Shown piece after piece: positions 28,464 through 57,267 of a DNA stretch of 64,000 nt. Numbering within the stretch: the stretch's first letter is position 1; each line of letters begins with the position of its first letter. The DNA comes from Verrucomicrobiota bacterium. GTDB lineage: Bacteria; Verrucomicrobiota; Verrucomicrobiia; Verrucomicrobiales; Akkermansiaceae. Position numbers and translations under genes: made by a program. The notes beneath the pieces are model-generated. The model had not been told where the DNA came from. It did not search any database and saw only the letters and a list, made by a program, of their open reading frames with translations. The DNA is taken from positions 4,724 through 68,723 of the forward strand of contig JBAXOF010000001.1 of NCBI GenBank assembly GCA_037133375.1, given 5' to 3'.

Positions 28464-29714
28464 ATGTGCCACTTCCTCCAGGTTTTCAGAAGCAGGACGC
28501 CGCTTGCCGTGATGATTGTCGTGCACGGTCTCTGTAATCCGTTAGGATGTTCCGCAGGTGCCCAGGTTTTTACAACCCAAGTCATCGGCACTCCGCCCCT
28601 GGGCCTGCGTGCGATTCTACCCGGCGTCGGCGGGTCGGAGTTTGCTCCGGAAGAAGTCTTCAAGGGCGGCTTTGGCTACGGTATCGGAGTGAGATCCACC
28701 TACGACTCGAACTTTTTCCTCACCAAGGACAATCCTGAAAACGAATTGACTACCAATGTCTTGCCTTGGATCAACTACCACAGCGACACAACTGGCGGTG
28801 CCCCGTTCTCTTTGAATGCGAGTTACCAACCGAATCTCCGGTTCTATCTGAATAATCCGAATATCAACGGGGTAGACCATTCCGGGGGTGTCAACATGCA
28901 GGTTGAAGGCGCGAAAACCTTGATCGCGGCCTATCTGAATTACAGTACGGTCTCCGGAACCGACATCTATAGCGGAACCTTCGTCAATGGCTCGCTGCTG
29001 GCAGGCGGCGTCAGGGGCACCTACCAGATCGCTTCCAGGACCTCCCTGTTCGCCAATTTCAAGGTTTCCATGTCGGACTACGGATCGGGCGCGCTGGTCG
29101 GATCTGACACCTACTCCGCCGAGGCGGGCGGTTTCTGGTCCGCATCGGAGCGGTTGAGTTTGGGTCCGTCAATCTGCTATATGAAGGAGACATCGGCCAA
29201 CACGGGTGACCGTAACTCGTGGACACTGAGCATGCAGGCTCAATACCTGATGGATGAAAAATTCAAATTCCTCGGCGCGCTCGGCCTGCAATACTCAAAC
29301 AACGCCAGCGATGCGGGCAACTCGTCGTTAGGACTCACCGGTCGCCTCGCCGCCAATTATGCCATCACCGAGAACCTGCAGTGGGAGACCTCGGCCCGCT
29401 ACGCCACCGCGCCATCGCCGACAGATCTGAATTATATGATGAACAACCTGACACTGTCGACCGCCCTGAGACGGCAACTCCTCAGGGCAACCGTCAGCCT
29501 GGGTGTGGAAATGAATTTCTCGGATTTTGTGGAAGTGGTGACAACCGGCACCAAGCTGGGCAACGAGAACAACCTGAGTATGCTCCTGTCCTATCAGAGG
29601 AAAGTGTTCTCGGAGCGTCTGGATTTCGATACCTCGATCCGCTACTCCTTGAACGGCGGCAGACAGGAATGGTCACAGGTGCAAGTCTCCGCAGGAATCA
29701 GTTTCCAATTCTGA
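28464..29714 (+). CDS. Outer-membrane beta-barrel protein associated with polysaccharide export
   Basis: N-terminal signal-like segment, alternating amphipathic strands rich in G/S/Y/N, C-terminal beta-signal ISFQF*. First gene of the glycan locus. Start uncertain (28437 TTG or 28464 ATG). Confidence 0.75.
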   Translation: MCHFLQVFRSRTPLAVMIVVHGLCNPLGCSAGAQVFTTQVIGTPPLGLRAILPGVGGSEFAPEEVFKGGFGYGIGVRSTYDSNFFLTKDNPENELTTNVLPWINYHSDTTGGAPFSLNASYQPNLRFYLNNPNINGVDHSGGVNMQVEGAKTLIAAYLNYSTVSGTDIYSGTFVNGSLLAGGVRGTYQIASRTSLFANFKVSMSDYGSGALVGSDTYSAEAGGFWSASERLSLGPSICYMKETSANTGDRNSWTLSMQAQYLMDEKFKFLGALGLQYSNNASDAGNSSLGLTGRLAANYAITENLQWETSARYATAPSPTDLNYMMNNLTLSTALRRQLLRATVSLGVEMNFSDFVEVVTTGTKLGNENNLSMLLSYQRKVFSERLDFDTSIRYSLNGGRQEWSQVQVSAGISFQF

Positions 29715-30460
29715 AAGCGCTTTAATCCACCCGCATCGGGAGCCTGTTCGAAGCCGATCACACCCGGCAAGCGGATGCCCCCGTCAGGCAGCGTCAGTCT
29801 ATCTATCAAACTGGTGCGCGTGCCGCATAGGCAGCGGTTCTAGCGACCGGACTGGCGGCCCGCAAGTGACCCACTGGATCGGCTCATGAGGTCCGCGCCA
29901 CAGGGACATGGTCCCGGCCATTTTTAGCTGGCACCGCGCGCGAAGATTTAGACAAACGAATATACCAAAGCACACCTTACGATTGGATATATCGGTTCTT
30001 AGAGTGCCATCGCTTGCAGAAACCATAGCTTTCCAGCCTTTAGATGAAAATCAACCTCAGTCGAGAAATTAGCGGCCAATGCCAGGCAGTGATTGCGGGC
30101 CTTGGTGGCGTAGGCTGTGGCTGGTGGTCCACGCGGCAAGCAGGCACCAAGCATCCTTTCCCCTTTGATTCATTCTTATCTATCCGTATTTAGAAACATT
30201 CCGACATTCGCAATCATCCTTGAGAATTTTGTCAATCGTCCGTGCAGGCGCTTACGCGTGGTGTGCAGCCCCTTGAGAGGGGACGCACATTGCGGAAGAA
30301 TTTCGCAATGGGTAAGGCGAGTATTCCAATCTAGCAAGATGCCCGAAAGTGGTTTTAGTGTCTATCAGCACTAAACGACCAAGGGCGGCAGCGTATCGAC
30401 TGTGGGTTGATAGCTTCACAGTTCGAAGAGTCAGACAGCAAGAAACCGGAAGCCAGCCGC

Positions 30461-31363
30461 ATGCATCATACAGATCAGGTCTCATGCGCTGCCCATACCC
30501 ATCACACCATGGTCAACGCCATTCATACAAAAATCGCGGAAAGGGAATGCATTATCCACCCGCGCGCGGACCGTGCCGCTAAGGCCGAAGGGTGTCTTCG
30601 CTGGGATAACACCCGGCTTATTAAGATGGCCTCATCCGGCGCGCGTGAGCGCGCCTTCGACACGCGCAACGCCACGACGGCGGGCCGTAGCCAAGAGTTG
30701 CCGGCAGCCAAGACCGCCGGTTGGAAGCGCTGTCTGGACATTTGCTGCATCGTGATCAGTCTGCCGCTGGTCCTGCCGCTGATGGTGCTCATCGTGCTCT
30801 GGATCAAGCTTTGCTCCCGAGGACCTGCGCTTTTGCGCCAACGCCGCATCGGCCGGAATGGCAGGCTGTTCACACTCTACAAGTTCCGCAGCATGAAAAT
30901 CAACTCCGGCACTGACCGGCAGGAGGCCCATGTCAGAGACCTGATCAAATTGGACCGACCAATGATCAAGCTCGACTTTCTATGCGACTCGCGGTTGATC
31001 CTGGGCAGTTGCCTGCTAAGAGCGGCCGGACTGGATGAATTGCCCCAATTATTGAATGTGCTGCGCGGCGAAATGAGCCTCGTTGGGCCACGCCCCTGCC
31101 TGCCCGGCGAGTATGCATTTTTCTCTGCGAAGCAACGGGAGAGGTTCCATGCGTTGCCAGGACTCACCGGCATTTGGCAGGTCAATGGCAAGAACCAGTC
31201 CACCTTTCGCGAAATGACCGAGATGGACATCCACTATGTGCGTAACGTCTCGGTGCTGCTGGATTTGCGCATCATGCTGAGGACTCCCGCAGCGCTCCTG
31301 CTGCAGATGTATCTGGCATGCCAGCACATACACGCATCCCGGCGGGGATTAGTGTTAGACTAA
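30461..31363 (+). CDS. Priming sugar transferase, small PGT (Bac_transf domain, one TM)
   Basis: WKRCLDI, single TM, GRLFTLYKFRSM, GLDELPQLLNVLRGEMSLVGPRP, PGLTGIWQV, MDIHYV. Start uncertain (30461/30509/30626). Confidence 0.9.
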   Translation: MHHTDQVSCAAHTHHTMVNAIHTKIAERECIIHPRADRAAKAEGCLRWDNTRLIKMASSGARERAFDTRNATTAGRSQELPAAKTAGWKRCLDICCIVISLPLVLPLMVLIVLWIKLCSRGPALLRQRRIGRNGRLFTLYKFRSMKINSGTDRQEAHVRDLIKLDRPMIKLDFLCDSRLILGSCLLRAAGLDELPQLLNVLRGEMSLVGPRPCLPGEYAFFSAKQRERFHALPGLTGIWQVNGKNQSTFREMTEMDIHYVRNVSVLLDLRIMLRTPAALLLQMYLACQHIHASRRGLVLD

Positions 31364-31416
31364 AACTTCGGTGAGCCAGACCGGGGATAATTTCGCCCAA
31401 CCCACCACCAGTGGCT

Positions 31417-32490
31417 ATGAATACAACCATCAACGTGGGGATCGTCGGCTATGGATATTGGGGGCCTAATCTGGCACGGCACTTCAGTGCCCAGGCGGGC
31501 GCTTGCTTGAGTGCGGTGTGCGATCGTAATGCCGGACGCCTCGAGCACATGCGACAACTCTATCCAAATGCGTCCTCCCACATTGATTTCGGCAGGATGC
31601 TCGGCGAGGCGAAGATCGATGCCATGGTTATTGCCACACCGCTTAGATCTCACTACGCCATGGCGAAAGCCAGCTTGCTGGCCGGCAAGCACGTCCTGAT
31701 CGAGAAGCCGATGGCTAGTTCGAGTCGGGAATGCGAGGAACTCATCGCGCTGGCGCAGCGCCAGGGTCTGATTCTTATGGTGGATCACACCTATCTCTAC
31801 TCGGGGTCGGTTGCCATGATTGCGGAAATCATCCAGCGCGGAGACATCGGGGTGGTTCGTTACATCAATTGCCAGCGCCTTAACCTGGGGATTTTCCAAC
31901 AAGACATCAACGTGGCCTGGGATTTGGCGCCGCATGATCTTTCCATCATTCTCCAAGTGATGGGAGAGCCACCCGTAACGGTGAATTGTCAGGGCAATGC
32001 CCACCTCAATCCGGAAGTAGAGGATGTGACCAACCTGTCTCTGACATTTGACGGAAAGCGCTTTGCCACCATCCAGAGCAGTTGGTTGGAACCACGGAAA
32101 GTGCGGCAGATGACCTTCGTCGGAACGCGCAAGATGATTGTTTACGATGACCTCCAGCCGTTGGAGAAAATCCGGATTTACGACGTCAGGGTCGATTTTC
32201 CCGCCCATTACGACAGTTTTTCGGAGTTTTACTGCTCCTATCATTACGGGGATTGTTATATTCCCCGCATCGAGCAACGTGAGCCGCTCCTCACAATGTG
32301 CAATCACTTTCTTGACTGCATCAAAAACCGCCGGGAACCGGTTTCCTGCGGCCGCAAGGGGCTTGAGGTCGTGCGCATTCTCGAGGCGAGCGACGCATCG
32401 CTGCAAGCGCAAGGGGCGGCGGTATCCTTGGCAAGTCCCCACCACGCGCGGTTGGCGCCAGGCCGCGCGTCATTGTCAATGGCATGCTAG
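31417..32490 (+). CDS. Gfo/Idh/MocA oxidoreductase (WbpB/WlbA/GnnA-like sugar-nucleotide 3-dehydrogenase)
   Basis: VGIVGYGYWG, IATP, HVLIEKPM, WDLAPHDLS. Confidence 0.9.
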   Translation: MNTTINVGIVGYGYWGPNLARHFSAQAGACLSAVCDRNAGRLEHMRQLYPNASSHIDFGRMLGEAKIDAMVIATPLRSHYAMAKASLLAGKHVLIEKPMASSSRECEELIALAQRQGLILMVDHTYLYSGSVAMIAEIIQRGDIGVVRYINCQRLNLGIFQQDINVAWDLAPHDLSIILQVMGEPPVTVNCQGNAHLNPEVEDVTNLSLTFDGKRFATIQSSWLEPRKVRQMTFVGTRKMIVYDDLQPLEKIRIYDVRVDFPAHYDSFSEFYCSYHYGDCYIPRIEQREPLLTMCNHFLDCIKNRREPVSCGRKGLEVVRILEASDASLQAQGAAVSLASPHHARLAPGRASLSMAC

Positions 32491-33008
32491 TTAGAAATCA
32501 TCCAGGAAGGACGGCATGGAATTCGCAGGGTCTGCGGATCTCACCCGGCGTAAAACTGGGCAGTGGGGTCAAGCTCTTTGGCTTTGTGAACCTCTATGAC
32601 TGCGAGATCGGCGATGATACCAGGATCGGGTGCTTCGTGGAAATCCAATGCGGGGTGAAGGTTGGCGCACGCTGCAAGATATCGAGCCACACCTTAATCT
32701 GTGAAGGGGTGACCATCGAAGACGAGGTTTTCATCGGGCATGGTGTGATGTTTATCAACGACCGCTGGCCGAGGGCCACCGCAAGGGATGGCAAAATAGT
32801 GGCGAAAGGCGATTGGGAATGCCAGGCCACACTGGTGCAGCAGGGTGCGTCGATCGGGTCAGGTGTTACCATCCTGGGAGGACTCACCATCGGCGCCAAC
32901 GCCATGATCGGTGCCGGCAGTGTGGTCACTGCCGATGTTGCGCCTGGCACCACTGTGGCAGGGAATCCGGCCCGCCTGCTGCCTCATTCTAACTGGATAA
33001 CACCATGA
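32484..33008 (+). CDS. Hexapeptide-repeat N-acyltransferase (WbpD/WlbB-like)
   Basis: Left-handed beta-helix repeats; [16 protein letters not shown]; [10 protein letters not shown]; VAGNPAR. Confidence 0.9.
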
Positions 33009-34123
33009 GGGTTCCTTTTATCGACATCAAATTGCATCACGCGCTCCTGCGTAACGAGTTTTTGCAGGCCATTGGCGAAGTCATCGATGCAGGCGTCTTT
33101 GTTGACGGCCCTTTTGTCGAGCGCTTCGAGCAGGAATTCGCGGCCTATTGCGAGGCCGGATCAGCGGTAGGCGTTGGCAGTGGCACGGAAGCGCTGTGGT
33201 TGACCCTGCTGGCCATGGGCATCGGACATGGCGACGAGGTGGTGACCGTGCCAATGAGCTTTGCCGCCACCGTGGAGGCAATCTGCGTTGCAGGGGCTAA
33301 ACCGGTGTTCGTCGACATTGATGAGCGGACTTACACCATGAATCCGGCCGCCTTGGAGCGAGTGCTGACGCCGCGCACCAAAGCGATCATCCCCGTGCAT
33401 CTTTTCGGCCAAGCCGCTGACATGGACCCGATCCTTGAAATCAGCCGCAAGCACGGCCTGCGCGTCATCGAAGATGCCGCGCAAGCGCACGGTGCCCAAT
33501 ACCAAGGTCGGCGGGTCGGTGTCCTCGGCGACGCCGGTTGTTTCAGCTTCTATCCCGGCAAAAACCTTGGTGCATTCGGCGAGGGCGGAGCGGTTGTCAC
33601 TGCCGACGAAAACTTGGCGCGAACCCTGCGCGCGCTCAGAAATCACGGACAAGCCGGCAAGAACCGGCATTCCATGATTGGTTGGAACAGCCGTCTGGAC
33701 GGGATCCAAGCCGCAGTCCTCGCAATCAAACTGCGCCATCTTGACGTGAGGAACCGGCAACGCCGGCAGCTCGCACGGCGTTATAACCGCGGACTTGCGG
33801 ATTTGCCGGAGGTGATCCTGCCGGTTGTGGCGGATGGCAGACAGCACGTTTTCCATATCTATGCGGTTAGAGTGGGTGACAGGCGACATGTGATGGCGGC
33901 GCTTGAGGAAAAGGGAATTGCCTGCGGTGTTCACTATCCGCTACCGATTCACCTTCAGACCGCCTACCGAAGCCTGGGCTACAAACGCGGGGATTTTCCG
34001 ATGGCGGAACAATGCGCGAAAGGGTTCATTTCCCTGCCGATGTTTCCAGAGATGACTGCGCACCAAGTTGCCTATGTCATCGACGCGGTGAGAGAAGCAT
34101 GCGGCATGTGCGCCACCGCGTGA
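33005..34123 (+). CDS. DegT/DnrJ/EryC1/StrS PLP aminotransferase (WbpE/WlbC-like)
   Basis: [41 protein letters not shown] (PLP Lys), [15 protein letters not shown]. Confidence 0.94.
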
Positions 34124-34193
34124 AGCTCCGGAGAAAGTGCCGCACCGCCAGGCGTGTGCGCCACGTTATACCCCCTCAAACGCACTCAAGCTC

Positions 34194-36494
34194 ATGCAAA
34201 AATCCCAGACCAATGTTCCCAAGGGAGGCTTCAGCATGCAGGATATGCTGTTTGTGTTGTTCAAGCATAAGTGGAAGATCATTATTTTTTCGCTACTTGG
34301 ATTCGCCGCTGCGGCGGTGGTCTTTATCAAGCAGGAACCCATCTATCGATCGAAGGCGAAGTTGTTAGTTCGCTACGTCCGAGAAACCGGCACGGTCGAT
34401 ACGTTTGAAGATACGAAAAGGCCCGGCAGCGGGGGCAAAGCCGGGGATCCCGTGATCAGCACGGAGATTGAAATTTTCAACAGTCTGGATCTCGCGCAGC
34501 AAGTTGCCGAGGCCATAGGGGTCGAACGCTTGCTACCTGGCTCCGACAGCCAGGACGTCACCTCCTTGTCGAGTGCCGCGAGTGCCGTATTGAAAGGCCT
34601 TGAGGTGATACCCGGCCAAAGCAGCAACGTGCTCTACGTCACCTATGGCAACAAGGATCGGGAGCTGGCACAGACGGTTTTGAAACGACTCGTCGAACTC
34701 TATTTTGAGAAACACCTCGAGATCCACCGGTCTGCGGCCGCGTTTGACGTCGTGGCCAAACAAACCGAGGAAGTGCGCCAGCGCTTGAAACAAACCGACC
34801 AGCAACTCAACAAGCTCAGGACTGACTCAGGCATCCTGTCACTAGCGGACGCGACCAACGCGTTGACCTCCCAGCGGACCAAGACTCAGGAAGATTTGAT
34901 CAAGGCCCGCGCCGATTTTGCCGAGGTGCAGGCGAGTATCGACGCCCGCGGCAAGGAGCCTGGCGCGCAAGAGGAAACCTCCCGCCGTGCCGGCCAGGGC
35001 GATGACAAATTCGCCAAAGGCGGGAAAGCCGCCAAGGGTCTCGGTGAGATCGCGCCGCCGCAAGTCATGACCGAATACCGGACGGTCATGGAACTGCTCG
35101 CGTTCCTGCAAAAGCGGGATGTAGAGCTGCGGCTCAAGTTCAAAGCCGGCACCCGCTTGCTGGTGCTCAACCAACAGCAATTCGACACCTATGACGCGAA
35201 GCGGCGCGTCTTGGTGGCGAAATACCCGGATCTGACCACCGTGGCGGAGGAGTTGGGAAAAAATCCGGATGCGGATAACTTCAAGTGGAATTTGCTCAGC
35301 GGCAAGGCGCGACTCGCGGCCATCAGTGCCAAGATCGAGGTGTTCGAAGCGCATCTGAAGGAAATTGCCGACCAATTCAGCAGGCAGTATGCGATTGGGG
35401 CCGAGATTGATGAAGTGGATCGTCGCAAACAGATGGAGGACGCCGAATACCGCTCGCTCGAAGCCAACCTCAAGAACGCTAAAATCAATCAGACCCTCGA
35501 CCCATCTCGGATGCCCAATATCACTTTGGTCCAGCAACCGTCAGCGCCGGTGAAGACCTTCGATGAGATGACCAAAAAAATTATTCTCGGCTTGGCGGGT
35601 GGCGGCATCGGTCTTGGCATTGGCCTGGCGTTCATCATCGAATTCATCCTGGTGCGCAACGTCGGCAGGCCGATCGAGATTCAGGCACGGCTGCAACTGC
35701 CCCTATTGTTGTCCATCCCTTACATGCGCAAGAAGGAACGGGGAGGCTTGATGTTAGGTCTGCATCAGGACCAGCCCCAGCTCGGCTTGAGTGAGAGTTT
35801 GACCGTCCCGCATGACGATTCCATGGCAGGGAATTTTGGAGCTGTGACGCGAAGGGCGAACCATTTCATCCTGCCTTATGCGGAGGCCATTCGTGACCGT
35901 ATTGTGTTCAACTTTGAAGTCAATAACGTGACTCACAAGCCGAAACTGGTGGCCGTGACCGGCCTCACGGAGGGGGCGGGTGCCTCAACGATTGCAGCGG
36001 GCCTGGCCAAATCGTTTGCAGAAATGCCCGGGTTGAAGGTGCTACTAGTGGACTTGAGTTCCAGGCATCCCGGGGATAACCCGTTGTTTGGCGAAATCCC
36101 GCGGCATTCGCTCAATGGCGCCTTGCGCTTGGCGCGTCACTCGCAGTTCCGTGAGAATCCGCAGCGCCTCTTCTATGCGAGCGCCTCTGCCAGAAGGGAT
36201 GACCACGGATTGACGACGTTCTCGCCGATGCATTTAAACGAACTCATGCCCAACTTGCTGGCCAGCGAATACGATTACATCATCTTCGACATGCCATCTA
36301 TCGACCAGATCAGCAGGACCCTGACAATGGCGGGAATGATGGACGAAGTGCTGCTGGTGCTGGACGCAGAGAACACCAACCGCGACAAGCTGGTGTGGGG
36401 GTATTCTGAATTAATCAAGGGCAAGGCCGATGTGTCATGCGTCTTCAACAAAACCCGCACGCACGCACCCGGTTGGCTGATCGGCAAGAACTAA
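34194..36494 (+). CDS. Polysaccharide co-polymerase (Wzc/GumC-like) with degenerate tyrosine-kinase domain
   Basis: TM1 (WKIIIFSLL), periplasmic coiled coils, QPSAP + TM2, then a P-loop-like domain with Walker A reading GLTEGAGAST, Walker A' VDLS, Walker B YIIFDMP, and no Tyr cluster at the C-terminus. Confidence 0.85.
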   Translation: MQKSQTNVPKGGFSMQDMLFVLFKHKWKIIIFSLLGFAAAAVVFIKQEPIYRSKAKLLVRYVRETGTVDTFEDTKRPGSGGKAGDPVISTEIEIFNSLDLAQQVAEAIGVERLLPGSDSQDVTSLSSAASAVLKGLEVIPGQSSNVLYVTYGNKDRELAQTVLKRLVELYFEKHLEIHRSAAAFDVVAKQTEEVRQRLKQTDQQLNKLRTDSGILSLADATNALTSQRTKTQEDLIKARADFAEVQASIDARGKEPGAQEETSRRAGQGDDKFAKGGKAAKGLGEIAPPQVMTEYRTVMELLAFLQKRDVELRLKFKAGTRLLVLNQQQFDTYDAKRRVLVAKYPDLTTVAEELGKNPDADNFKWNLLSGKARLAAISAKIEVFEAHLKEIADQFSRQYAIGAEIDEVDRRKQMEDAEYRSLEANLKNAKINQTLDPSRMPNITLVQQPSAPVKTFDEMTKKIILGLAGGGIGLGIGLAFIIEFILVRNVGRPIEIQARLQLPLLLSIPYMRKKERGGLMLGLHQDQPQLGLSESLTVPHDDSMAGNFGAVTRRANHFILPYAEAIRDRIVFNFEVNNVTHKPKLVAVTGLTEGAGASTIAAGLAKSFAEMPGLKVLLVDLSSRHPGDNPLFGEIPRHSLNGALRLARHSQFRENPQRLFYASASARRDDHGLTTFSPMHLNELMPNLLASEYDYIIFDMPSIDQISRTLTMAGMMDEVLLVLDAENTNRDKLVWGYSELIKGKADVSCVFNKTRTHAPGWLIGKN

Positions 36495-36513
36495 CATTAT
36501 ATTTCCACCATTT

Positions 36514-37956
36514 ATGATCAGACTCCGCCACAAGTTGTTAATCCACATGTTCCAACTGGTTGATCAGTTGGTCCTGCTGGGTGCGGCCGTGGGTATGATC
36601 TATTTCCAACCGGGAATTGTGCCGCAGGGTGACGGCCAGCTCCTTGATGCGACTTTCCGCCTTGAAGACGCAATTCTCATGGCTATTGTCGCGCTCGGGT
36701 GGATCCTTATCTTCGATTTCTTCATCCACTACAAAGCCGACCGCCTGGTGGCCCTCCACACCCAGTTGAGGTGCTTGGTGAAAGCGACCGGATTGGCCTC
36801 GATTTGGCTACTGATTATCTGTGCCCTGTTTGCAGTGAAGAACTTCAATATCTTCAACGTCCTGATCTTTTTTGGAGTGGTGACCGTGGCCGGCATCGCG
36901 AGCCGGTTGTTTGTCCGCTTGCTGCTGTTGAGTGCCAGACGCTCGGGGTATAACTTCCGTTATCTGCTGATGGTTGGCGCCAGCGAGCGGGCCCACCAGA
37001 TTGCTGAAAGACTCGATGAAAAACCCGAACTAGGATACAAAATCGTCGGCTTTGTGGCGGAAACTCCCGAGGCCATGGAAGCGTGGCAACAGCGCAAGCA
37101 CAACAACTGGAAGGTTCTCGGCCTGCTCACCAACCTGCGCCACATCCTGACCGGCGAACGGGTGGACGAAATCATGGTGTGCCTGCCATTGGACACACAA
37201 TTCAGTGACATTGCCATGATCGTGCAGCACGCCCGCGACCTGGGGATAGTGGTCCGTTTCATGCCTAACATCGCAGGCGGCACCCTGCTGAAGAATCTGC
37301 ATGTGGAGGAATTCGAGGACGAGTATGTGGTGACCCTGTTCCGGGAGCAGATGCTGGTGCAGTTGCTGGTGAAGCGGTTCATTGACGCGTCACTCTCCTT
37401 GATCGTTCTCATCCTGTTGTGCCCCATGTTGGTGGTGGTGGCTCTACTTATCAAGCTGACCAGTCCCGGACCGGTGTTGTTCGTGCAGAACCGCGTGGGC
37501 ATGAACCAGCGGCAGTTCAAGCTCTACAAGTTCCGCTCGATGGTCGCCGATGCCGAGTCCCGCAAGGATGCCATCGCCCACCTCAACGAACGGGATGGAC
37601 CGGTCTTCAAGATCGAGAATGATCCGCGCACCACCTGGATCGGCAGGATTCTGCGCAAAACGAGCATTGATGAGTTGCCCCAGTTGTTCAACGTCCTGAG
37701 CGGGGAAATGAGCTTGGTGGGCCCACGGCCGCCGCTGCCCGAGGAAGTCAAGCGCTACGCCTGGCATTTCCGTAAGCGCTTGTCGGTCAAGCCCGGTGTC
37801 ACCTGCATCTGGCAGATCAGTGGCCGCAATAATGTCTCGTTCGACCGCTGGATGGAGATGGATCATGAATACATCGACAATTGGTCGCTGTGGCTGGATC
37901 TGAAGATTCTGCTCATCACCATCCCGGTGGTGTTGTTCACCCGGGGAGCTTCGTAG
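36514..37956 (+). CDS. Undecaprenyl-phosphate glycosylphosphotransferase, full-length WcaJ/WbaP type
   Basis: Four N-terminal TMs, CoA-binding-like domain (LLMVGAS), KRFID, FKLYKFRSM, SIDELPQLFNVLSGEMSLVGPRP, KPGVTCIWQI. Confidence 0.93.
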   Translation: MIRLRHKLLIHMFQLVDQLVLLGAAVGMIYFQPGIVPQGDGQLLDATFRLEDAILMAIVALGWILIFDFFIHYKADRLVALHTQLRCLVKATGLASIWLLIICALFAVKNFNIFNVLIFFGVVTVAGIASRLFVRLLLLSARRSGYNFRYLLMVGASERAHQIAERLDEKPELGYKIVGFVAETPEAMEAWQQRKHNNWKVLGLLTNLRHILTGERVDEIMVCLPLDTQFSDIAMIVQHARDLGIVVRFMPNIAGGTLLKNLHVEEFEDEYVVTLFREQMLVQLLVKRFIDASLSLIVLILLCPMLVVVALLIKLTSPGPVLFVQNRVGMNQRQFKLYKFRSMVADAESRKDAIAHLNERDGPVFKIENDPRTTWIGRILRKTSIDELPQLFNVLSGEMSLVGPRPPLPEEVKRYAWHFRKRLSVKPGVTCIWQISGRNNVSFDRWMEMDHEYIDNWSLWLDLKILLITIPVVLFTRGAS

Positions 37957-38079
37957 CGCGCGATTTTGAGCGGCGACAGGAGCATCCTGTCGCAAGTCCT
38001 TCTTGACGGGCCCATGCGGATTGCGCCGCCGGGCGTTCCAACTCGACCCAGCCTGAATGTAATTTATCTAGCACGCTCT

Positions 38080-38775: not shown

Positions 38776-39031
38776 TTAGCGGACGTATAAACATCTCGTT
38801 CGCACGCCGGATAGAGATGGGCCACGAGCACACCGACCGCTTCTCGCTATTGCTCGCTCTGAGGATCCTGCTACTAACAATCCCCGTCGTGCCGCGCGGA
38901 CTGAGAGTTCCTTGATTTGCGCCAGCAAAAGCGCCAGCATCACCGCAAACAGGATATTTCGCTCGATCAGCCGCTGGTGTGCTGGTGTTCGCGGCATGCC
39001 GGAAAGGCGAAAATCCAATCATAGGACTTTT

Positions 39032-39994: not shown

Positions 39995-40081
39995 TACAGG
40001 TTGTTCACGGCGATATGTTATTATGTTCTGTAACACCCGCTGCTAACAACGCTTAACCAAGTCGCTGCCACCGAGATCAAC

Positions 40082-40996: not shown

Positions 40997-41055
40997 ACAG
41001 TGGCACTGTGACCCGTAATTTGCAAATTTCTTTCACCTCTCGCGACGCAACCCTC

Positions 41056-42171: not shown

Positions 42172-42221
42172 TGCGGTCCATGCCGGTAGATCCCACTGTC
42201 CCTAACTAGTCCCCACTGCCG

Positions 42222-43328: not shown

Positions 43329-43421
43329 GATTTTATGCTGTCACTGGCTGCCCCAAGCGGCCTGCCGCGCATGCGATTTCAAAGCCGCAGCCGTTTCATC
43401 CGGATTCTAATTCCAACTACC

Positions 43422-44180: not shown

Positions 44181-44227
44181 CCGAATTGATCAACCTTACC
44201 CTGGCAGCTTCAACGACCGGAATTCCC

Positions 44228-45133: not shown

Positions 45134-45143
45134 CCTCTTCGCC

Positions 45144-46145: not shown

Positions 46146-46146
46146 G

Positions 46147-46276: not shown

Positions 46277-47938
46277 ATGAAATACTCCCAACTCTTCAAA
46301 ATCGCACCGGGGGCGATCACTGCAGCGATGGCCTGGTTATTTGCCGCGACTGTGCTCATGCCCTGCATGATCGAACGCGCTACAGCCGCCACTTCGGTGT
46401 CCCAGTTCGGCTTCACGTGGACGTTCTCCGCGGACAGAACTGTCGGACAATATGCCAACGGCGATTGGTGGGTCGTGGGTCCGGTAACCATCACCAGCAT
46501 ATCCCCCGCGAGCACCACAGACTCTACAGGATGGACCCGAAACGGCACACAACTGAACCCTGATCCTTACACGATCAACGGCGGAGAAGGGTTTGACAGT
46601 TCACTCAAAAACATGTGGAGTTCAGGCCTAAATGTCGCCCCGAGTTTCACGGGTTCTCCACTGGTCGTAATTACGGGTTCAGTGGTTTCAACGATTTCAG
46701 TGGGACAACCGAATGTAAATACTTCGTTACCACAAATAACGGACGCTGCCATATTGACAGTGGTGGCTAGCGCGCCTGCGTCCGGGTCATTTCGCCCACC
46801 TCCCACAGGGTCGAATAAGACTTCAGTCTGGAACAAAAGTACTCTCGATTATAGTATTCTAAAGCAATACGCCCCCGTACCTAATACTCCAGATCTTGCA
46901 ACCGTCGAAGGGTATTTCGAACGACCTTGGCTTTGCCTAAGAGAAGGGCAATCTATTCAAGCTTTGACACCGACCAACAACATGCCGAATTATGGACGGG
47001 ATATAGCGCAACGGATATCTCTAGGCATGCTCTCCCTTCATCTAAATTATACGGCTGCACAGAAGAGTTTACTATACATGCGTTTGGTGCAAGTTGGCAT
47101 TGATGTGTATGGATCGACAAAAGCAGGAATGGTTTGGAAAGGCGCTGGAGGAGAAAATGCAGGACGCAAAGCGCCTATGGTGCTGGCAGGCTTGGCTCTT
47201 CATGATCCAAGTATTTTGGAATGGTCAAATGCTGCTCTGCATTTCGTCTTCCAAGAAGATCAACAGACTTGGTTTGTGACCCAATCTGATGTGGGACGTG
47301 TGATGTATACGGCAGATGGCCGACCACGTGACACCTATACACAAAGCATGGTGGGTCTGCCGGAATGGGGAAGCTACCATCTACAATATCCAAACAATGA
47401 CGCTAGCAACTGGGCTACCGCATACTACCGATGGATTGGTGGCGCATGGCTAGGCAATATCTTGGCGATAAAACTCATTCCAGGAGGAGAAACGGCATGG
47501 AATTGGGCTCCTGTATTCGCGTACGCGAACCGCTACTGGAGCATCGAAGGTGCGAATGGGCAAACGAACCAATCATGGGGCCCCCCAAACAACATCAGTC
47601 CGTTTGTGTATGAAATGTGGGCGGCCTATGCGGGCGCTCCGCCATCACCAATCAGTACTCCCCGGGTCGTGACCTTTGCCATCGGCGACAGGATCGCAAC
47701 GCTGGGCGTCACGAACGTCCGGGCCACGGGAGCGCTTTCGGGTACGTTGTTGGGCACGCAGCCACAGGGGGGCCTTGGGACAATTGTCAGCGGTCCTGTG
47801 CTCGCGGACAATTTCACCTGGTGGCAGGTGGACTACGACACTGGCGTGGATGGTTGGAGTGGGGGCGACAATTTCATTAAGTCGACCACACCGCCTGTGG
47901 CGCCATCTGCACCACAAGGTCTAAAGGTGGTCAAATAA
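46277..47938 (+). CDS. Secreted protein of unknown function with C-terminal SH3-like domain
   Basis: Signal peptide MKYSQLFK...ATA; unrecognised aromatic-rich core; C-terminal FAIGDRI...NVRATGALSGTLLGTQ...WWQVDYDTGVDGWS (bacterial SH3-like), then tail PVAPSAPQGLKVVK. Confidence 0.75.
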   Translation: MKYSQLFKIAPGAITAAMAWLFAATVLMPCMIERATAATSVSQFGFTWTFSADRTVGQYANGDWWVVGPVTITSISPASTTDSTGWTRNGTQLNPDPYTINGGEGFDSSLKNMWSSGLNVAPSFTGSPLVVITGSVVSTISVGQPNVNTSLPQITDAAILTVVASAPASGSFRPPPTGSNKTSVWNKSTLDYSILKQYAPVPNTPDLATVEGYFERPWLCLREGQSIQALTPTNNMPNYGRDIAQRISLGMLSLHLNYTAAQKSLLYMRLVQVGIDVYGSTKAGMVWKGAGGENAGRKAPMVLAGLALHDPSILEWSNAALHFVFQEDQQTWFVTQSDVGRVMYTADGRPRDTYTQSMVGLPEWGSYHLQYPNNDASNWATAYYRWIGGAWLGNILAIKLIPGGETAWNWAPVFAYANRYWSIEGANGQTNQSWGPPNNISPFVYEMWAAYAGAPPSPISTPRVVTFAIGDRIATLGVTNVRATGALSGTLLGTQPQGGLGTIVSGPVLADNFTWWQVDYDTGVDGWSGGDNFIKSTTPPVAPSAPQGLKVVK

Positions 47939-48104: not shown

Positions 48105-49433
48105 ATGACTCCTTACACCATTATTTTTCTGGTAATCAATGCCGCGATATTACTTGTGTTGCCGCGTCAGTTGGCACCTTTGCCGCTGCTAGTGGGTTGC
48201 TGTTATATGACGATCAGTCAATGCTTCAATCTAGGACCGGTCCATTGCACCGTAATCCGCGTTCTGATTGCGGTCGCTATTATCAGGATTCTGATGCGCG
48301 GCGAGAGAATGATCGGCGCCCTGAACGGCATGGACAAGCTGATGATCGCGTGGATAGCTTGGTTCGTTCTCAGCAGCCCACTCTTTCCCGGGGAGGAGTC
48401 GTCCTTGATTTTTAATCTTGGCCAAGCCTATAATATTGGAGGTATCTATTTTCTCCTCCGCGTGTTCTGTGGAACACTTGAAGAAATACAGGGTATCGTA
48501 CGGCTTATGGCCTGGCTACTGGTGCCCATTGCTATTGAGATGGTGATGGAACGCCTGACCCAAGCAAATCTCTTCTCCGTATTTGGAGGATTTGTAGCCG
48601 AGCGTGACGGCAAGTTCCGAGCACAGGGACCCTTTGCACATGCGATTCTGGCCGGCAGCGTGGGTGCCGCATGCTTCCCGTTGATGGCAGGCATCTGGAA
48701 CAGGCACCGCACTGCGGCACTGATCGGAATGACAGCCAGCATTGTGATGGTGGGTGCGAGTAATTCCAGCGGACCCATCATGAGCTTGCTATTTGGTGCC
48801 GCCGCACTTGGAATGTGGCGCTACCGCGATCTGACTCGGTATGCTGGCAGGCTCTTTGTAGTAGCGTATTTGCTGTTAGACCTGGTCATGAAGCAGCCTG
48901 CCTATTACATCCTCAGTAGAATCGATCTCACTGGCAGCAGCACTGGATGGCACCGCGCGCGCCTGATCGAGTCCAGCATCGAACATTTGAGCGAGTGGTG
49001 GCTAGCGGGAACCAACTACACGCGTCACTGGATGGCTAGTGGTGTATCATATACTCCGAATCACGCGGACATCACCAATTACTATATACTCATGGGAGTC
49101 TGGGCGGGGTTGCCGCTAATGCTGCTATTCATGGTAATGATCTGGAAAGGATTCCGCTATGTGGGGCAGATTGTGCAACAAGACCCGCCGCTGACAGGGC
49201 TACAGCCCTTTCCGGTGTGGTGCCTCGGAGCGTCACTCTTCGCACACATGGCCACCTGTATCTCGGTCGCTTATTTTGACCAATCCTATATCTTTATGTT
49301 CTTGTGTCTGGCTGCCGCAAGTTCCCTCAATTCGGTTGCACTGCGGGGTTTGGAGTCCGCAGAGGAATCATTATATGAAACCGCGGGCCCGCAAGTGCAG
49401 GAGTCGCCGCTGCCAGCCTTCTCTCGTCTTTAA
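48105..49433 (+). CDS. O-antigen ligase / Wzy polymerase family membrane protein
   Basis: About 11-12 TM; RAQGPFAHAILAG, SNSSGP, periplasmic loop GSSTGWHR...WWLAG, HADITNYY. Confidence 0.82.
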   Translation: MTPYTIIFLVINAAILLVLPRQLAPLPLLVGCCYMTISQCFNLGPVHCTVIRVLIAVAIIRILMRGERMIGALNGMDKLMIAWIAWFVLSSPLFPGEESSLIFNLGQAYNIGGIYFLLRVFCGTLEEIQGIVRLMAWLLVPIAIEMVMERLTQANLFSVFGGFVAERDGKFRAQGPFAHAILAGSVGAACFPLMAGIWNRHRTAALIGMTASIVMVGASNSSGPIMSLLFGAAALGMWRYRDLTRYAGRLFVVAYLLLDLVMKQPAYYILSRIDLTGSSTGWHRARLIESSIEHLSEWWLAGTNYTRHWMASGVSYTPNHADITNYYILMGVWAGLPLMLLFMVMIWKGFRYVGQIVQQDPPLTGLQPFPVWCLGASLFAHMATCISVAYFDQSYIFMFLCLAAASSLNSVALRGLESAEESLYETAGPQVQESPLPAFSRL

Positions 49434-49446
49434 TTGCCAGTCTTGC

Positions 49447-50946: not shown

Positions 50947-50970
50947 TGCAAATCGGTTTGCGAACATTGT

Positions 50971-52242: not shown

Positions 52243-52248
52243 TGCATC

Positions 52249-53811: not shown

Positions 53812-53885
53812 GGCACATTCTCAGGCTGCCAATTTTCGGCAGGCGATGAGCCACGCGGGAACTTGGGCAGATAGATACATCACTT

Positions 53886-54701
53886 ATGAATGAAATAGTC
53901 ATTGAGGCTGGGAGTGTCGAACGCCAGTATTGGCGTGACTTGTGGCGTTACAGGGAATTGTTCTATTTCCTGGCGTGGCGCGACATTCTGGTGCGCTACA
54001 AGCAGACGGTCATCGGTATCACATGGGCGGTGATTCGTCCGCTGCTCACGATGCTGGTTTTGACCTTCATCTTCAGCAAACTGGCAAAGATGGATGCCGG
54101 AGGCGTGCCCTATCCGGTGCTGGTGTTTTGTGGCATGCTGCCCTGGCAGTTTTTCTCCACGGCATTTGCTGAGAGCGGCAACAGTCTGGTGAACAACGCG
54201 GGGATGATCTCCAAGGTGTATTTCCCGCGCATGGTGGTGCCGGTGAGCAGCGTGATTACCAGTTTTGTGGATTTTCTCATTTCGGCGGTCCTGATGGTGT
54301 TGATCATGATCTATTACGGCTATTCGCCCGGGCCGTCGGTCACACTGCTTCCAATCTTTGTGATCCTGGCCTTTGCCACGGCGTTCGGAGCCGGGTTGTG
54401 GGTGTCCGCGCTCATGGTTCGCTATCGCGACTTCCGCTTCATCGTGCCTTTCATCGTACAGTTCGGTCTGTATATCTCACCGGTCGGCTTCAGCAGCAAT
54501 GTGGTGCCACAACAATGGCGGATGCTTTATTCAATGAATCCGATGGTCGGCGTGATCGACGGCTTCCGTTGGGCAATTCTGGGCGAGCAGAGCCTGTATT
54601 GGCCCGGATTTTACTTTTCGGTCGCGGGCGTGTTGCTGCTCATCGTCACCGGCACCATCTATTTCCGCCACACCGAACGGACGTTCGCTGACATCATATG
54701 A
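53886..54701 (+). CDS. wzm: ABC-2 polysaccharide exporter permease
   Basis: LWRYRELFYFLAWRDILVRYKQT..G..W, ISKVYFPR, YRDF, PVGFS, NPMVGVIDGFR. Confidence 0.95.
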   Translation: MNEIVIEAGSVERQYWRDLWRYRELFYFLAWRDILVRYKQTVIGITWAVIRPLLTMLVLTFIFSKLAKMDAGGVPYPVLVFCGMLPWQFFSTAFAESGNSLVNNAGMISKVYFPRMVVPVSSVITSFVDFLISAVLMVLIMIYYGYSPGPSVTLLPIFVILAFATAFGAGLWVSALMVRYRDFRFIVPFIVQFGLYISPVGFSSNVVPQQWRMLYSMNPMVGVIDGFRWAILGEQSLYWPGFYFSVAGVLLLIVTGTIYFRHTERTFADII

Positions 54702-56047
54702 ACAATCCCATTATTTCTGTCGAAAATCTGTCGAAGCGCTACATGATCGGCCGGCGGATGGCGAAAGGTGACGGTCTGCGGCATTTGTTGGAAAGTGCAA
54801 TCCGCGCGCCATTCGACATGCTGCGGGCTGAATCGCGGGCGAAGCGGGCCACGACCGAGGAGTTCTGGGCGGTCCGCGACCTGAATTTGGAAATCCAACA
54901 GGGTGAGATGTTGGGGGTCATCGGCCGCAATGGAGCCGGCAAATCGACGTTGCTCAAGTTGTTGAGTCGCATCACCGAGCCCACGTCAGGCATCATTCGG
55001 CTGCGTGGCCGCGTGGCCAGCCTGCTGGAAGTGGGAACCGGCTTCCATCCCGAACTTACCGGACGTGAGAACATCTTTCTCAATGGCGCGATTCTCGGAA
55101 TGGGCAGGGTGGAGATCAAACACAAGTTCGACGAGATTGTCGCCTTCGCCGAGATCGACAAATTTCTCGACACCCCGGTGAAGCGCTACAGCAGCGGGAT
55201 GTATGTGCGGCTGGCGTTCGCCGTGGCGGCCCACCTTGAGCCTGAGATTTTGATCGTGGATGAGGTGCTCGCCGTGGGTGACGCGGAGTTCCAGAAGAAG
55301 TGCCTTGGCAAGATGGAGGATGTTTCCACCAAAGAAGGCCGCACCGTCATTCTCGTCAGTCACCAGATGACCGCCATTCAGAATCTTTGCACGCGCTGCA
55401 TCCTGATGGACCATGGGCAATTGATCCGCGAGGGTATGACCGACGAGGTCGTCAATGTCTATATGAGGAATGGAATCCAACTGGCCACGGGTGACCTGAC
55501 AAAGCGCACGGATCGAGCGGGCAAAGGAGATGTCAGGATCATATCCATCGATCTTCGCGATGAATGCGGCAATATCATCAAGGAAGCCATCTCAGGCAGC
55601 ACGGTGGTTTTGAGTCTGGCCTATTCGGTAAAGGACAACGTCGTCGTCAATGACTGTGTCCTTTGCGTGGCAATCGAAAAGGACCTGAAGGAGTATTTCT
55701 CCATGTCAACGGCTCTGGTCGATCGAATGAAGATCAGGCTCTCGGGCTGTGGCCGCATCGATTTCCTGATCCCGGATTGGCCATTGATGGGGGGCAGGTA
55801 TCATGTCAGCTCGTATATCGGCTCCAATCAGGGGATTATGCAGGATAATGTGGAGGACGCGGCGGTGATTGAGGTGATCGACGGGGATTTCTACGGCACG
55901 GGCAAGCTGCATCACGAAGGCTGGGAGGGAACGGCCGTGCTGGTTCGCCATTCATGGAGTCACCATCAAGGCGGACCATTGAACGGGTCGAGCAAAATAG
56001 CACTGGACGACTGCCCAACGATTCTAGCGCAGAAGCAATTCGCATGA
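54698..56047 (+). CDS. wzt: ABC polysaccharide exporter ATPase with C-terminal Wzt-C domain
   Basis: Walker A GRNGAGKST, GTGFHPELTGREN, signature YSSGM, Walker B ILIVDE, H-loop VSH, plus a C-terminal beta-sandwich extension. ATGA overlap with wzm. Confidence 0.95.
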   Translation: MNNPIISVENLSKRYMIGRRMAKGDGLRHLLESAIRAPFDMLRAESRAKRATTEEFWAVRDLNLEIQQGEMLGVIGRNGAGKSTLLKLLSRITEPTSGIIRLRGRVASLLEVGTGFHPELTGRENIFLNGAILGMGRVEIKHKFDEIVAFAEIDKFLDTPVKRYSSGMYVRLAFAVAAHLEPEILIVDEVLAVGDAEFQKKCLGKMEDVSTKEGRTVILVSHQMTAIQNLCTRCILMDHGQLIREGMTDEVVNVYMRNGIQLATGDLTKRTDRAGKGDVRIISIDLRDECGNIIKEAISGSTVVLSLAYSVKDNVVVNDCVLCVAIEKDLKEYFSMSTALVDRMKIRLSGCGRIDFLIPDWPLMGGRYHVSSYIGSNQGIMQDNVEDAAVIEVIDGDFYGTGKLHHEGWEGTAVLVRHSWSHHQGGPLNGSSKIALDDCPTILAQKQFA

Positions 56048-57267
56048 AGATTCTGATGATGCACAGGGGCGACGGCAACATGGGTGGCGGCCAGGTCCAG
56101 ATGAACCGCCTCTATTCTGGACTCAGAGCGCACGGCGTCGATGCGCGAATCATCTGCCGGGATAGAACCCAGTCGGAATCGGTGCAGATGCCAGCGCGTC
56201 CCTGGGTCGAGAAACCGTTGCGCAGGCTGACCCGCAGGATGGGGTTGAACGAGTTGCACTTGGTCAGTTCATTCGCGGCAAGGAAACTCCAAGAGTTCCT
56301 GGATGCCGATCTCATCGATTTCCACTGCCTCCACTGCGAAACGTTGAGTTATCTGGCCCTGCCCGGCCTCACTCGCGGCAAGCCCGCGGTTTTCACTTTT
56401 CATGACATGTGGCCGCTCACCGGCCACTGTCACGCCAGCCTCGAATGCGACCGCTGGAAAACCGGCTGCGGCCAATGCCCCCACCTGGATGTGGAACCGC
56501 GAGCACTTCGTGATGCCACGGCCCTCGAATGGCGACTCAAGCGGATGGCCTACAATCATTCCAAGTTCACCATTGTCACTCCCAGCAAGTGGCTTCATGA
56601 CAGAACCAAGGAAAGCATGTTGGGCGAATTTCCGGTGCATCACATTCCTCACGGTATTGAAACGGATATCTACCAACCTTTGGACAAAGACCACTGCCGT
56701 TCATTGCTAGGAATACCCGAAGGAAATAATGTTATTTTGTGTGCGATGGAAAGCATGAAGAGGCCACTGAAAGGGGCCGCGTTGCTGGTCGCGGCGCTCC
56801 AAGGTCTGCCCGATTCCGTGTGCATGGAGAGCGTTTTGCTCCTCTTCGGTCAATCCAATGGGGAGATTCTGAAGCAGATTCAGATGCCGGTGGTGAACCT
56901 CGGGTTTCTGCACAATCAGCGACTCAAGGCGATGGCGTTTTCCGCGGCAGATGTGTTCATCAATCCGACGCGAGCCGAAAATTTCCCGCTCGTCGTGTTG
57001 GAAAGCATGGCATGCGGGACGCCGGTGGTTTCCTTCGGTGTGGGCGGCGTGCCGGAAATGGTGCGCCCGGGAATGACCGGTTATTTGGCGCAACCGGATC
57101 AACCGGATGACCTGTGTGAAGGAGTTGTCAGGCTTTTGGGCGACAAGGCCGGGTTACAGGCCATGGGCCGCCAGTGTCGGGAGGTGGTTTTGTCCGAGTA
57201 TGCCTTGGAGCTTCAAGTCCAACGGTATATCGATTTGTATCAACAGGTGATTGATGGAAGGGCGTGA
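56044..57267 (+). CDS. GT4 family glycosyltransferase (WcaC-like)
   Basis: FTFHDMWPLTGHCH...CDRWKTGCGQCP; ENFPLVVLESMACGTP; VGGVPEM. Confidence 0.92.
   Translation: MKILMMHRGDGNMGGGQVQMNRLYSGLRAHGVDARIICRDRTQSESVQMPARPWVEKPLRRLTRRMGLNELHLVSSFAARKLQEFLDADLIDFHCLHCETLSYLALPGLTRGKPAVFTFHDMWPLTGHCHASLECDRWKTGCGQCPHLDVEPRALRDATALEWRLKRMAYNHSKFTIVTPSKWLHDRTKESMLGEFPVHHIPHGIETDIYQPLDKDHCRSLLGIPEGNNVILCAMESMKRPLKGAALLVAALQGLPDSVCMESVLLLFGQSNGEILKQIQMPVVNLGFLHNQRLKAMAFSAADVFINPTRAENFPLVVLESMACGTPVVSFGVGGVPEMVRPGMTGYLAQPDQPDDLCEGVVRLLGDKAGLQAMGRQCREVVLSEYALELQVQRYIDLYQQVIDGRA

Follow-up and report, generated by a model that had tools for sequence, protein, structure and literature searches.

A cluster of genes for surface polysaccharide assembly was analysed in a stretch of 64,000 nucleotides (hereafter the window) from a Verrucomicrobiota bacterium of the Akkermansiaceae (assembly GCA_037133375.1, contig JBAXOF010000001.1, positions 4,724 to 68,723 of the forward strand). 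The cluster, at ~28.4–62 kb of the window, carries the ABC exporter Wzm/Wzt where related clusters in other bacteria carry the flippase Wzx. The chassis on which the exporter sits is widespread and uncharacterised, and consists of a Wzc-like polysaccharide co-polymerase (PCP) with the look of a pseudokinase, a phosphoglycosyl transferase (PGT) of the WbaP/WcaJ type and a membrane enzyme of the Wzy_C superfamily. The combination recurs in other genomes, and the ABC exporter and the MOP-family flippase exclude each other among the related loci surveyed. The reading favoured here, with a likelihood not far short of even, is that of one undecaprenyl-linked pathway in which Wzm/Wzt would have displaced Wzx, and in which the Wzy_C-like enzyme would polymerise the exported units together with the co-polymerase. 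The genes at the centre of this reading are the following.

34137..36494, + strand: Wzc-type PCP with a putative pseudokinase domain (ATG start at 34194; Wzz domain and P-loop)
36514..37956, + strand: large WbaP/WcaJ-type polyprenyl-phosphate hexose-1-phosphate transferase (Bac_transf 236 bits plus CoA_binding_3; TIGR03025 398.6 bits, over the cut-off of 295.55)
48105..49433, + strand: polytopic membrane enzyme of the Wzy_C superfamily (Wzy_C matches at the family level)
53886..54701, + strand: Wzm, ABC-2 permease (ABC2_membrane 68 bits)
54698..56047, + strand: Wzt, ABC ATPase with a C-terminal Wzt_C domain (ABC_tran 82 bits; Wzt_C 42 bits, cut-off 30.4)

Translocases in the window and in related loci

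The gene order was obtained from Pfam and NCBIfam scans of the open reading frames (ORFs) of the window and from gene calls on a matching metagenome contig, L001, which extends 5.9 kb past the window end. Pfam scans of the 64 kb detected no MOP flippase (Polysacc_synt, MatE, MurJ) in any sizeable ORF, and a six-frame hydrophobicity scan of the window left no polytopic ORF without assignment, in agreement with the initial annotation of this DNA, which had seen no such flippase. A wzx just downstream, named there as the finding that would speak for two conventional polysaccharides, is excluded for the 5.9 kb beyond the window end, where L001 holds no MOP flippase and only two giant GDSL/cadherin proteins.

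The initial annotation had also called for a survey of this gene combination. Loci were collected around relatives of the Wzy_C-like protein, 80 from species-representative genomes, one from NCBI (L004) and 80 from metagenome contigs, for a total of 161. Each locus comprised at most 10 kb per side of the Wzy_C-like gene; ORFs were called and searched with the window proteins, and with a MOP-flippase profile seeded from the Pfam-annotated Polysacc_synt genes in L003 and L004. The same gene order was found in 16 species-representative genomes and 6 metagenome contigs, and the combination is therefore not a chance juxtaposition. The translocases were distributed as follows.

Genome loci and L004 (n = 81): Wzm/Wzt only 16, MOP only 25, both 0, neither 40
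Subset of these with both flanks of 8.5 kb or more (n = 50): Wzm/Wzt 13, MOP 19, both 0, neither 18
Metagenome contigs, an independent set (n = 80): Wzm/Wzt only 6, MOP only 25, both 0, neither 49

Of the 161 loci, Wzm/Wzt is present in 22, a MOP flippase in 50 and the two together in 0. In the full-flank subset the exclusion gives a one-sided Fisher p of 0.0006, with the loci treated as independent despite their relatedness. Many relatives have the MOP gene 1.4–6 kb from the Wzy_C-like gene, and every polytopic protein of the ABC-type loci is assigned, which leaves none as an overlooked flippase.

The exporter itself is readily identified. The best solved relative of the window Wzt is the full-length Aquifex Wzt (E 1.5e-69), and the window Wzm matches the solved mycobacterial Wzm, TarG and Aquifex Wzm. 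With the Wzt_C score given above, the earlier call of Wzm/Wzt with a Wzt-C domain at 53886–56047 is confirmed. The related Wzt proteins are all 419–481 aa long and therefore all carry the C-terminal extension; Wzt_C is annotated in L002, L165 and L166. The binding domain (window part 55500–56047) is 63–70% identical between the window and loci with other glycosyltransferase cassettes, and has been replaced in L052, L065, L057, L069 and L019 by a domain that does not align with it. In most loci, Wzt_C may thus read not the variable repeat but a feature set by conserved genes of the locus (e.g., the first sugar). All ABC-type loci found have the Wzy_C-like gene in the same operon. A conventional ABC pathway polymerises in the cytoplasm without a Wzy-type enzyme and usually starts from WecA; the window cluster holds a Wzy_C-like gene and Bac_transf PGTs, and no WecA-type initiating enzyme was found by Pfam and NCBIfam scans of the window.

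Conserved frame and variable cassette

The Verrucomicrobiales loci have a conserved frame made up of the PCP, the PGT, Wzm, Wzt and a giant GDSL protein; the variable cassette that it encloses consists of the glycosyltransferases and the Wzy_C-like gene. The stretch 42222..46145 differs between related loci; in the window it holds the following genes.

42222–43328, + strand: unknown 368-aa protein, in the first part of the variable cassette
43335–44180, + strand: WecG/TagA-family transferase (Pfam)
44186–45133 and 45144–46145, + strand: two GT2 transferases (Pfam)

The difference between frame and cassette is visible in the identities of Verrucomicrobiales ABC-type loci to the window proteins.

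Wzm: 74–86%
Wzt: 74–80%
Large PGT: 71–76%
PCP: 46–71%
Wzy_C-like protein: 45–47%
Secreted partner (46277..47938): 34–44%

This layout is that of serotype-variable capsule loci, in which, by analogy, the frame genes would act on the product of the cassette. A compact version is present in the Luteolibacter locus L049, where the order is PCP, unknown, PGT, Alg14-like, Alg13-like, secreted protein, GT4, unknown, Wzy_C-like, GT2, Wzm, UDP-glucose dehydrogenase and Wzt. This locus has a single PGT and approximately four glycosyltransferases between PCP and Wzt, which are too few genes for two polymers. L166 has the same look, also with a single PGT; counted from the PCP to the giant protein, the two loci have four to five transferases.

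Wzm stands beside the chassis in several lineages, with identities to the window protein of 74–86% in the Verrucomicrobiales loci, 62% in L025, 38% in L057 and L069, and 27% in L019. A neighbour-joining tree was built for the Wzy_C-like protein. All 100 bootstrap replicates recovered the window clade as purely ABC-type, and 96 of them did so for a large Verrucomicrobiales clade; none of the 100 joined the two main ABC groups without intervening MOP-type loci. Since the frames are nearly identical and the ABC groups are separated in this tree, the simplest reading is that Wzy_C cassettes moved between ABC-type and MOP-type frames, in which case the enzyme would do the same job under either translocase. 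It is quite possible, at a likelihood that stays under even, that the change from Wzx to an ABC exporter arose several times on the same chassis and that Wzm/Wzt serves a periplasmic Wzy-type polymerase, as a fourth, hybrid route.

The Wzc-like co-polymerase

The co-polymerase carries a Pfam Wzz domain (34.8 bits, gathering cut-off 25.5), and its C-terminal P-loop domain aligns to the Staphylococcus aureus CapA/CapB tyrosine kinase with E 2e-7. Its Walker A motif reads GAGAST where CapB has GAGKST, that is, alanine in place of lysine, and its tail contains no tyrosines and no C-terminal tyrosine cluster. Autokinases of the Wzc type (PCP-2a) have both a lysine in Walker A and a tyrosine cluster, and the window protein has neither; the "kinase-dead Wzc" proposed for the gene at 34194 is thereby borne out. 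The lysine-less motif G-x-G-A-G-[AVT]-S-[ST] was present in 27 of 27 aligned C-terminal domains, which came from ABC-type loci, MOP-type loci and loci with neither translocase. These 27 domains retain Walker A'- and B-like motifs and have no tyrosine tail. The lysine-less Walker A is a family-wide trait of the chassis co-polymerases and is not tied to the ABC variant. The family resembles a conserved pseudokinase, or perhaps only a nucleotide-binding regulatory domain.

The Wzy_C-like membrane enzyme

The protein encoded at 48105–49433 matches Pfam Wzy_C (PF04932) on its own with 16 bits (E 0.011), under the cut-off of 31.7. Of 18 family members, 15 match the profile (best E 3e-8), and several relatives have precomputed PF04932 matches. 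The Wzy/O-ligase-like call of the initial annotation therefore holds at the superfamily level only, and the protein is a divergent branch of the Wzy_C superfamily. A database search returned 1866 homologues. The top 120 had 50–73% identity, and among these the few matches with a named source were Verrucomicrobiae or Nitrospirota; the genome scan adds carriers in Methylobacter, deltaproteobacteria, betaproteobacteria and Acidobacteriota. The nearest genome is a Luteolibacter metagenome-assembled genome, with 73% identity, which makes an origin of the window in Verrucomicrobiales most likely.

Profiles and predicted structure lean slightly toward a polymerase. TIGR04370, a model of repeat-unit polymerases, matches weakly in 2 of the 18 members, and the window protein has no match in NCBIfam. 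Ligase models, and the ligase-like TIGR03097, match none of the 18. An AlphaFold model of the protein (pLDDT 76) has as its best fold match RodA (6pl6), a SEDS glycan polymerase, with a probability of 0.99 but a weak TM of 0.36–0.45; the 50 best fold matches include no WaaL structure. Searched as a profile against the PDB sequences, the family gave no match even at E<=10. Classification by profiles and fold, as the initial annotation had proposed, thus yielded the signals from TIGR04370 and RodA and did not separate polymerase from ligase.

Gene context favours a polymerase. In most MOP-type loci, the Wzy_C-like protein is the sole polytopic protein besides the flippase, and its gene often adjoins a PCP of the same pseudokinase-like family. 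As the only other polytopic protein, it is the sole Wzy candidate in otherwise canonical Wzx/Wzy/PCP sets. On this basis, 48105–49433, the gene that defines the chassis, is regarded as a candidate repeat-unit polymerase, which is the favoured assignment, or alternatively as a ligase.

A proposed hybrid pathway

From comparative genomics and gene context we infer that the ABC exporter and the Wzy_C-like enzyme would act on one and the same glycan, and that the enzyme would be a polymerase. In the proposed pathway, which would make a surface polysaccharide or exopolysaccharide on undecaprenyl diphosphate, a PGT and approximately four to five single-domain glycosyltransferases would build a lipid-linked unit or short block at the cytoplasmic face, and the unit would be modified with pyruvate, methyl groups and N-acetamido sugars. 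The binding domain of Wzt would select the unit and Wzm/Wzt would carry it to the periplasmic face. The Wzy_C-like enzyme and the co-polymerase would then join the units into a polymer, which would be O-acylated by the MBOAT protein and its partner and would leave through the outer-membrane barrel. A precedent for the translocation step exists. Wzk of Helicobacter pylori, an ABC protein homologous to PglK, restores O-antigen flipping in an Escherichia coli wzx mutant (PMC2841628).

Several points weigh against the proposed pathway. The Wzk precedent has the PglK-type ABC architecture and not that of Wzm/Wzt. The two PGTs of the window could mean two lipid-linked glycans. The conservation of the Wzy_C-like family, with 45–73% identity across Verrucomicrobiota, Nitrospirota, Methylobacter and others and with 87 invariant columns in the 18-sequence alignment, is far above that of usual Wzy polymerases. 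The window protein itself lies under the Wzy_C cut-off, has no sequence match to solved structures and has a weak fold match. Wzt_C domains occur in known systems whose chains are completed and capped in the cytoplasm before export, and the many methyltransferases of the locus could supply a chain-end cap. When counted by the approximately four independent ABC lineages, the exclusion of the two translocases is on its own only suggestive. In addition, 18 of the 50 full-flank loci have neither translocase within 10 kb; the chassis can therefore rely on a flippase gene located at a distance, as might also be the case in the window organism.

Alternative explanations

Three options had been put forward in the initial annotation, namely (a) units flipped by the ABC exporter and polymerised by Wzy under a kinase-dead Wzc, (b) a capped, ABC-exported chain ligated onto a Wzy/Wzc backbone or onto secreted proteins, and (c) two interleaved pathways. 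Option (a) is favoured over (b) by the position of the Wzy_C-like protein as sole Wzy candidate in the MOP-type relatives, and (b) is kept alive by the conserved Wzt_C and the unusually high conservation of the membrane enzyme.

In the ligation scheme, which is rather unlikely but the strongest of the alternatives and follows the way of S-layer glycosylation clusters, the whole chain would be made and capped in the cytoplasm and exported by Wzm/Wzt once Wzt_C has recognised the cap, and the Wzy_C-like protein would be a ligase or O-oligosaccharyltransferase. The acceptor would be lipid A-core, another glycan, or a secreted protein such as the giant GDSL/cadherin proteins. Wzt_C scores above its cut-off in the window and is retained in every related Wzt, and the locus has five to six methyltransferases, methyl being a typical chain-ending cap in known systems; the compact L049, however, is without any methyltransferase, and a methyl cap is therefore not general. 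Giant secreted proteins stand directly after Wzt in ABC-type loci (10 and the window) and in no MOP-type locus, and the S-layer clusters of Geobacillus and Paenibacillus pair the same parts next to the gene of an acceptor protein (PMC2943079). However, neither ligation to a protein nor ligation to lipid A needs a co-polymerase and an outer-membrane barrel. A conserved acceptor would account for the high conservation of the membrane enzyme better than a variable repeat unit would. The gene of the enzyme nevertheless lies in the variable cassette and diverges along with the glycosyltransferases, and known WaaL ligases tolerate different donors. A ligase would be compatible with either export route and would also explain the alternation of ABC and MOP, but the MOP-type relatives have no other polymerase candidate in the locus even though a Wzc-like co-polymerase is present. 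The lack of ligase-model matches among the 18 members and of WaaL among the top fold matches also counts against ligation.

A second alternative, option (c), is improbable. In this case two conventional pathways would share one locus, a Wzy/PCP polymer with a distant wzx and a separate ABC polymer around wzm/wzt. It draws on the two PGTs (30407 and 36514), on the glycosyltransferases on both sides of wzm/wzt, and on the 18 full-flank relatives without a translocase within 10 kb, where a distant flippase does occur with the chassis. It is also the conventional account of the wzx-less Klebsiella K11 and K34 capsule loci (PMC5867348). Independent pathways would be expected to overlap sometimes, yet ABC and MOP translocases occur together in 0 of 161 loci, and Wzm/Wzt is inherited with PCP and PGT as one frame. 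L049 and L166 manage with the single PGT and few transferases described above. The genes of the window cluster are co-oriented and closely packed, with no terminator-like site between genes.

An ordinary O-antigen ABC cluster with an added WaaL ranks under the ligation scheme, since the frame of co-polymerase and PGT travels with Wzm/Wzt; it is also disfavoured by the presence of orthologues in Wzx/PCP loci without another polymerase candidate. An exopolysaccharide locus of the PEP-CTERM/exosortase type, at which faint EpsL and TIGR03007 matches hinted, is rejected, as the NCBIfam scores in the window are far under the cut-offs (TIGR03007 56 bits against 279; TIGR03014 21 bits against 275) and there is no PEP-CTERM tail.

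Comparison with known systems

The Wzx/Wzy/Wzc pathways, such as those of the E. coli group 1 capsule, Pseudomonas aeruginosa Psl and Myxococcus xanthus exopolysaccharide, share with the window cluster a Bac_transf PGT, single-domain glycosyltransferases, pyruvate and acyl decorations, a Wzy_C-superfamily enzyme and a Wzz-domain co-polymerase with a cytoplasmic P-loop. The window co-polymerase weakly matches the PslE and Wzc structures. The window cluster differs from these pathways in having no MOP flippase, no Wza/OPX protein and no Walker-A lysine or tyrosine tail, and in having Wzm/Wzt instead. Orthologous loci in other phyla carry a Wzx flippase.

ABC-dependent export of O-polysaccharides, as in E. 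coli O9a and with WzmWzt of Aquifex aeolicus, has in common with the window cluster Wzm, Wzt, Wzt_C and methyltransferases that may provide a cap. The window cluster differs in its WbaP/WcaJ-type start instead of WecA and in the Wzy_C-like and Wzc-like genes in the same operon. Its binding domain is conserved at the level given above despite differing glycosyltransferase sets, and some relatives are without a methyltransferase.

The S-layer glycosylation clusters of Geobacillus stearothermophilus and Paenibacillus alvei (WsaP/WsfP, Wzm/Wzt, WsaB/WsfB) combine a WbaP-type PGT, Wzm/Wzt, an oligosaccharyltransferase with a Wzy_C domain and a methyl cap (PMC2943079), and the statement of the initial annotation that such systems pair an ABC exporter with a ligase-like oligosaccharyltransferase is sound. 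The mix of PGT, exporter and Wzy_C protein is the same as in the window, and a gene for a large secreted protein lies alongside. The S-layer clusters differ in being Gram-positive, in having no co-polymerase and no outer-membrane component, and in that their Wzy_C protein is a protein O-oligosaccharyltransferase. By contrast, the window Wzy_C-like protein has orthologues in Wzx/PCP loci, in which one would expect a polymerase.

PglK and Wzk resemble the exporter proposed here in being ABC translocases able to supply a Wzy-dependent O-antigen pathway (PMC2841628). They differ in being single-polypeptide half-transporters of another ABC architecture with no carbohydrate-binding domain. A literature search for a described Wzy/PCP pathway served by Wzm/Wzt found none in the literature that it covered, and we know of no natural pairing of PglK or Wzk with a Wzy polymerase. 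The dual-chain cell-wall polysaccharides of Lactococcus and Enterococcus join an ABC-exported rhamnan and a Wzx/Wzy-made side polymer on one glycan. Their loci hold both an ABC exporter and a MOP flippase, whereas in the chassis loci the two are mutually exclusive.

Other features of the locus

The polysaccharide cluster is entirely on the + strand, and the credible genes are all on this strand from 28.4 kb to the window end. The remaining genes of the cluster are listed below.

28437..29714, + strand: predicted outer-membrane beta-barrel protein (alternative start 28464; aromatic last residue and beta-strand-like pattern)
30407..31363, + strand: small PGT of the Bac_transf family (Bac_transf 174 bits; TIGR03025 217 bits, C-terminal part only)
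31411–32490, + strand: GFO/IDH/MocA oxidoreductase (Pfam)
32484–33008, + strand: hexapeptide acetyltransferase (Pfam)
33005–34123, + strand: DegT aminotransferase (Pfam)
37966–38775, 38912–39994 and 40082–40996, + strand: three SAM-dependent methyltransferases (Pfam)
40966–42171, + strand: UDP-GlcNAc 2-epimerase (Pfam)
46277..47938, + strand: secreted protein with a C-terminal SH3b-like domain, directly upstream of the Wzy_C-like gene
49447–50946, + strand: polysaccharide pyruvyl transferase (Pfam; L001 gene calls)
50974–52242, + strand: FrhB/FdhB-like iron-sulfur flavoprotein (Pfam; L001 gene calls)
52249–53811, + strand: 520-aa protein with a C-terminal MetW-like methyltransferase domain (Pfam; L001 gene calls)
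56044–57267, + strand: GT4 glycosyltransferase (Pfam; L001 gene calls)
57254–58246, + strand: GINT1_N-domain protein (Pfam; L001 gene calls); the pair with GT4 is also in L166
58360–59898, + strand: MBOAT membrane O-acyltransferase (Pfam)
59905–60924, + strand: probable extracytoplasmic partner of the MBOAT protein, no family (L001 gene calls)
60987–61760, + strand: methyltransferase (Pfam; L001 gene calls)
61867..64000 and past the window end, + strand: giant secreted GDSL/DUF642/Big_9/cadherin-like protein, 1378 aa (Pfam; full length in L001)

The barrel protein at 28437–29714 is a candidate for the outer-membrane exit component of the polysaccharide. It belongs to no Pfam family at E<=0.001, and the NCBIfam models EpsL and TIGR03016 match it faintly, far under their cut-offs; Pfam scans found no Wza/OPX (Poly_export) domain anywhere in the window. 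A gap of 693 bp after the barrel gene (29715–30406) contains no credible ORF and may hold the locus promoter. The scans for promoters and terminators were no richer than those of shuffled sequence and are uninformative on operon structure; every terminator-like site lay inside a gene.

The locus contains two PGTs, the small one beside WbpB/D/E-like genes and the large one after the PCP, and within the fetched DNA the relatives have only the large PGT. The trio at 31411..34123 resembles the WbpB/WbpD/WbpE route of sugar-nucleotide modification, which it may represent. The partner role of the 59905–60924 protein is assumed by analogy with AlgI/AlgJ and DltB/DltD. The G+C content is 0.48 at 38–40 kb, which covers the Methyltransf_24 gene at 38912–39994, against ~0.57 for the locus, and the methyltransferase/epimerase block at 37966–42171 is mostly missing from the closest relative, L166. 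These two features suggest a recent insertion into the cassette. The pyruvyl transferase, the FrhB-like protein and the MetW fusion recur in both ABC-type and MOP-type loci, and the pair of pyruvyl transferase and FrhB/FdhB-like flavoprotein (49447–52242) is kept across phyla with both translocase types.

The secreted protein at 46277–47938 is not assigned to a family by Pfam or NCBIfam. Among its 883 homologues, many are fused to malectin, CBM4_9, chitobiase-C or PKD modules, and a homologue is present in 22 of 85 surveyed sequences, the window included. In its AlphaFold model (pLDDT 86) the core, ~residues 35–450, is a beta-sandwich with a helical domain. A fold search against the PDB gave no match for the core and matched the SH3b-like tail only. 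The protein probably represents an undescribed family of glycan-active enzymes.

At the end of the cluster, two giant secreted proteins of 1378 and ~1341 aa follow each other (window 61867–64000; L001 13508–21539). They have an N-terminal GDSL/SGNH domain, DUF642/CBM modules and Big_9/cadherin repeats, and they could be glycan esterases, adhesins or glycosylation targets. The third secreted protein named in the initial annotation as embedded in the locus, an fn3/F5-F8 protein at 26992–28278, is on the minus strand and outside the co-oriented cluster. Its C-terminus (...FGRVEVLLPTL) is like that of the giant GDSL protein at L001 13508–17641 (...FARLRVAVSMP). The shared look may be a lineage-specific sorting signal and is not the PEP-CTERM motif.

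The upstream 1–26 kb of the window contain unrelated genes, including permeases, thymidylate synthase and four hybrid histidine-kinase/response-regulator genes. The latter lie in a row on the minus strand at 1460–9808, one with CHASE and two with PAS and GAF domains, and regulation of the polysaccharide locus by these kinases is possible.

Implications

Bacterial surface polysaccharides are taught as the products of three separate routes, i.e., Wzx/Wzy, ABC transporter and synthase, and genome annotation and serotype prediction depend on this split. The occurrence of one chassis with either Wzx or Wzm/Wzt and never both, in at least 22 ABC-type and at least 50 MOP-type loci, suggests that the translocation step is a swappable module. 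The ABC-type loci offer a natural system for the questions of what the Wzt binding domain targets when a Wzy-type enzyme acts downstream and whether ABC exporters can move short lipid-linked units. In addition, three large uncharacterised families emerge, namely the Wzy_C-like enzyme, the lysine-less co-polymerase and the secreted protein with an unmatched core. All three occur commonly in Verrucomicrobiota, Nitrospirota and methanotrophs, organisms whose biofilms and aggregates are shaped by exopolysaccharides. If the proposed pathway is true, Wzm/Wzt would be the natural translocase of a Wzy/PCP pathway, and this would constitute a fourth, hybrid assembly route beside the three of the textbooks.

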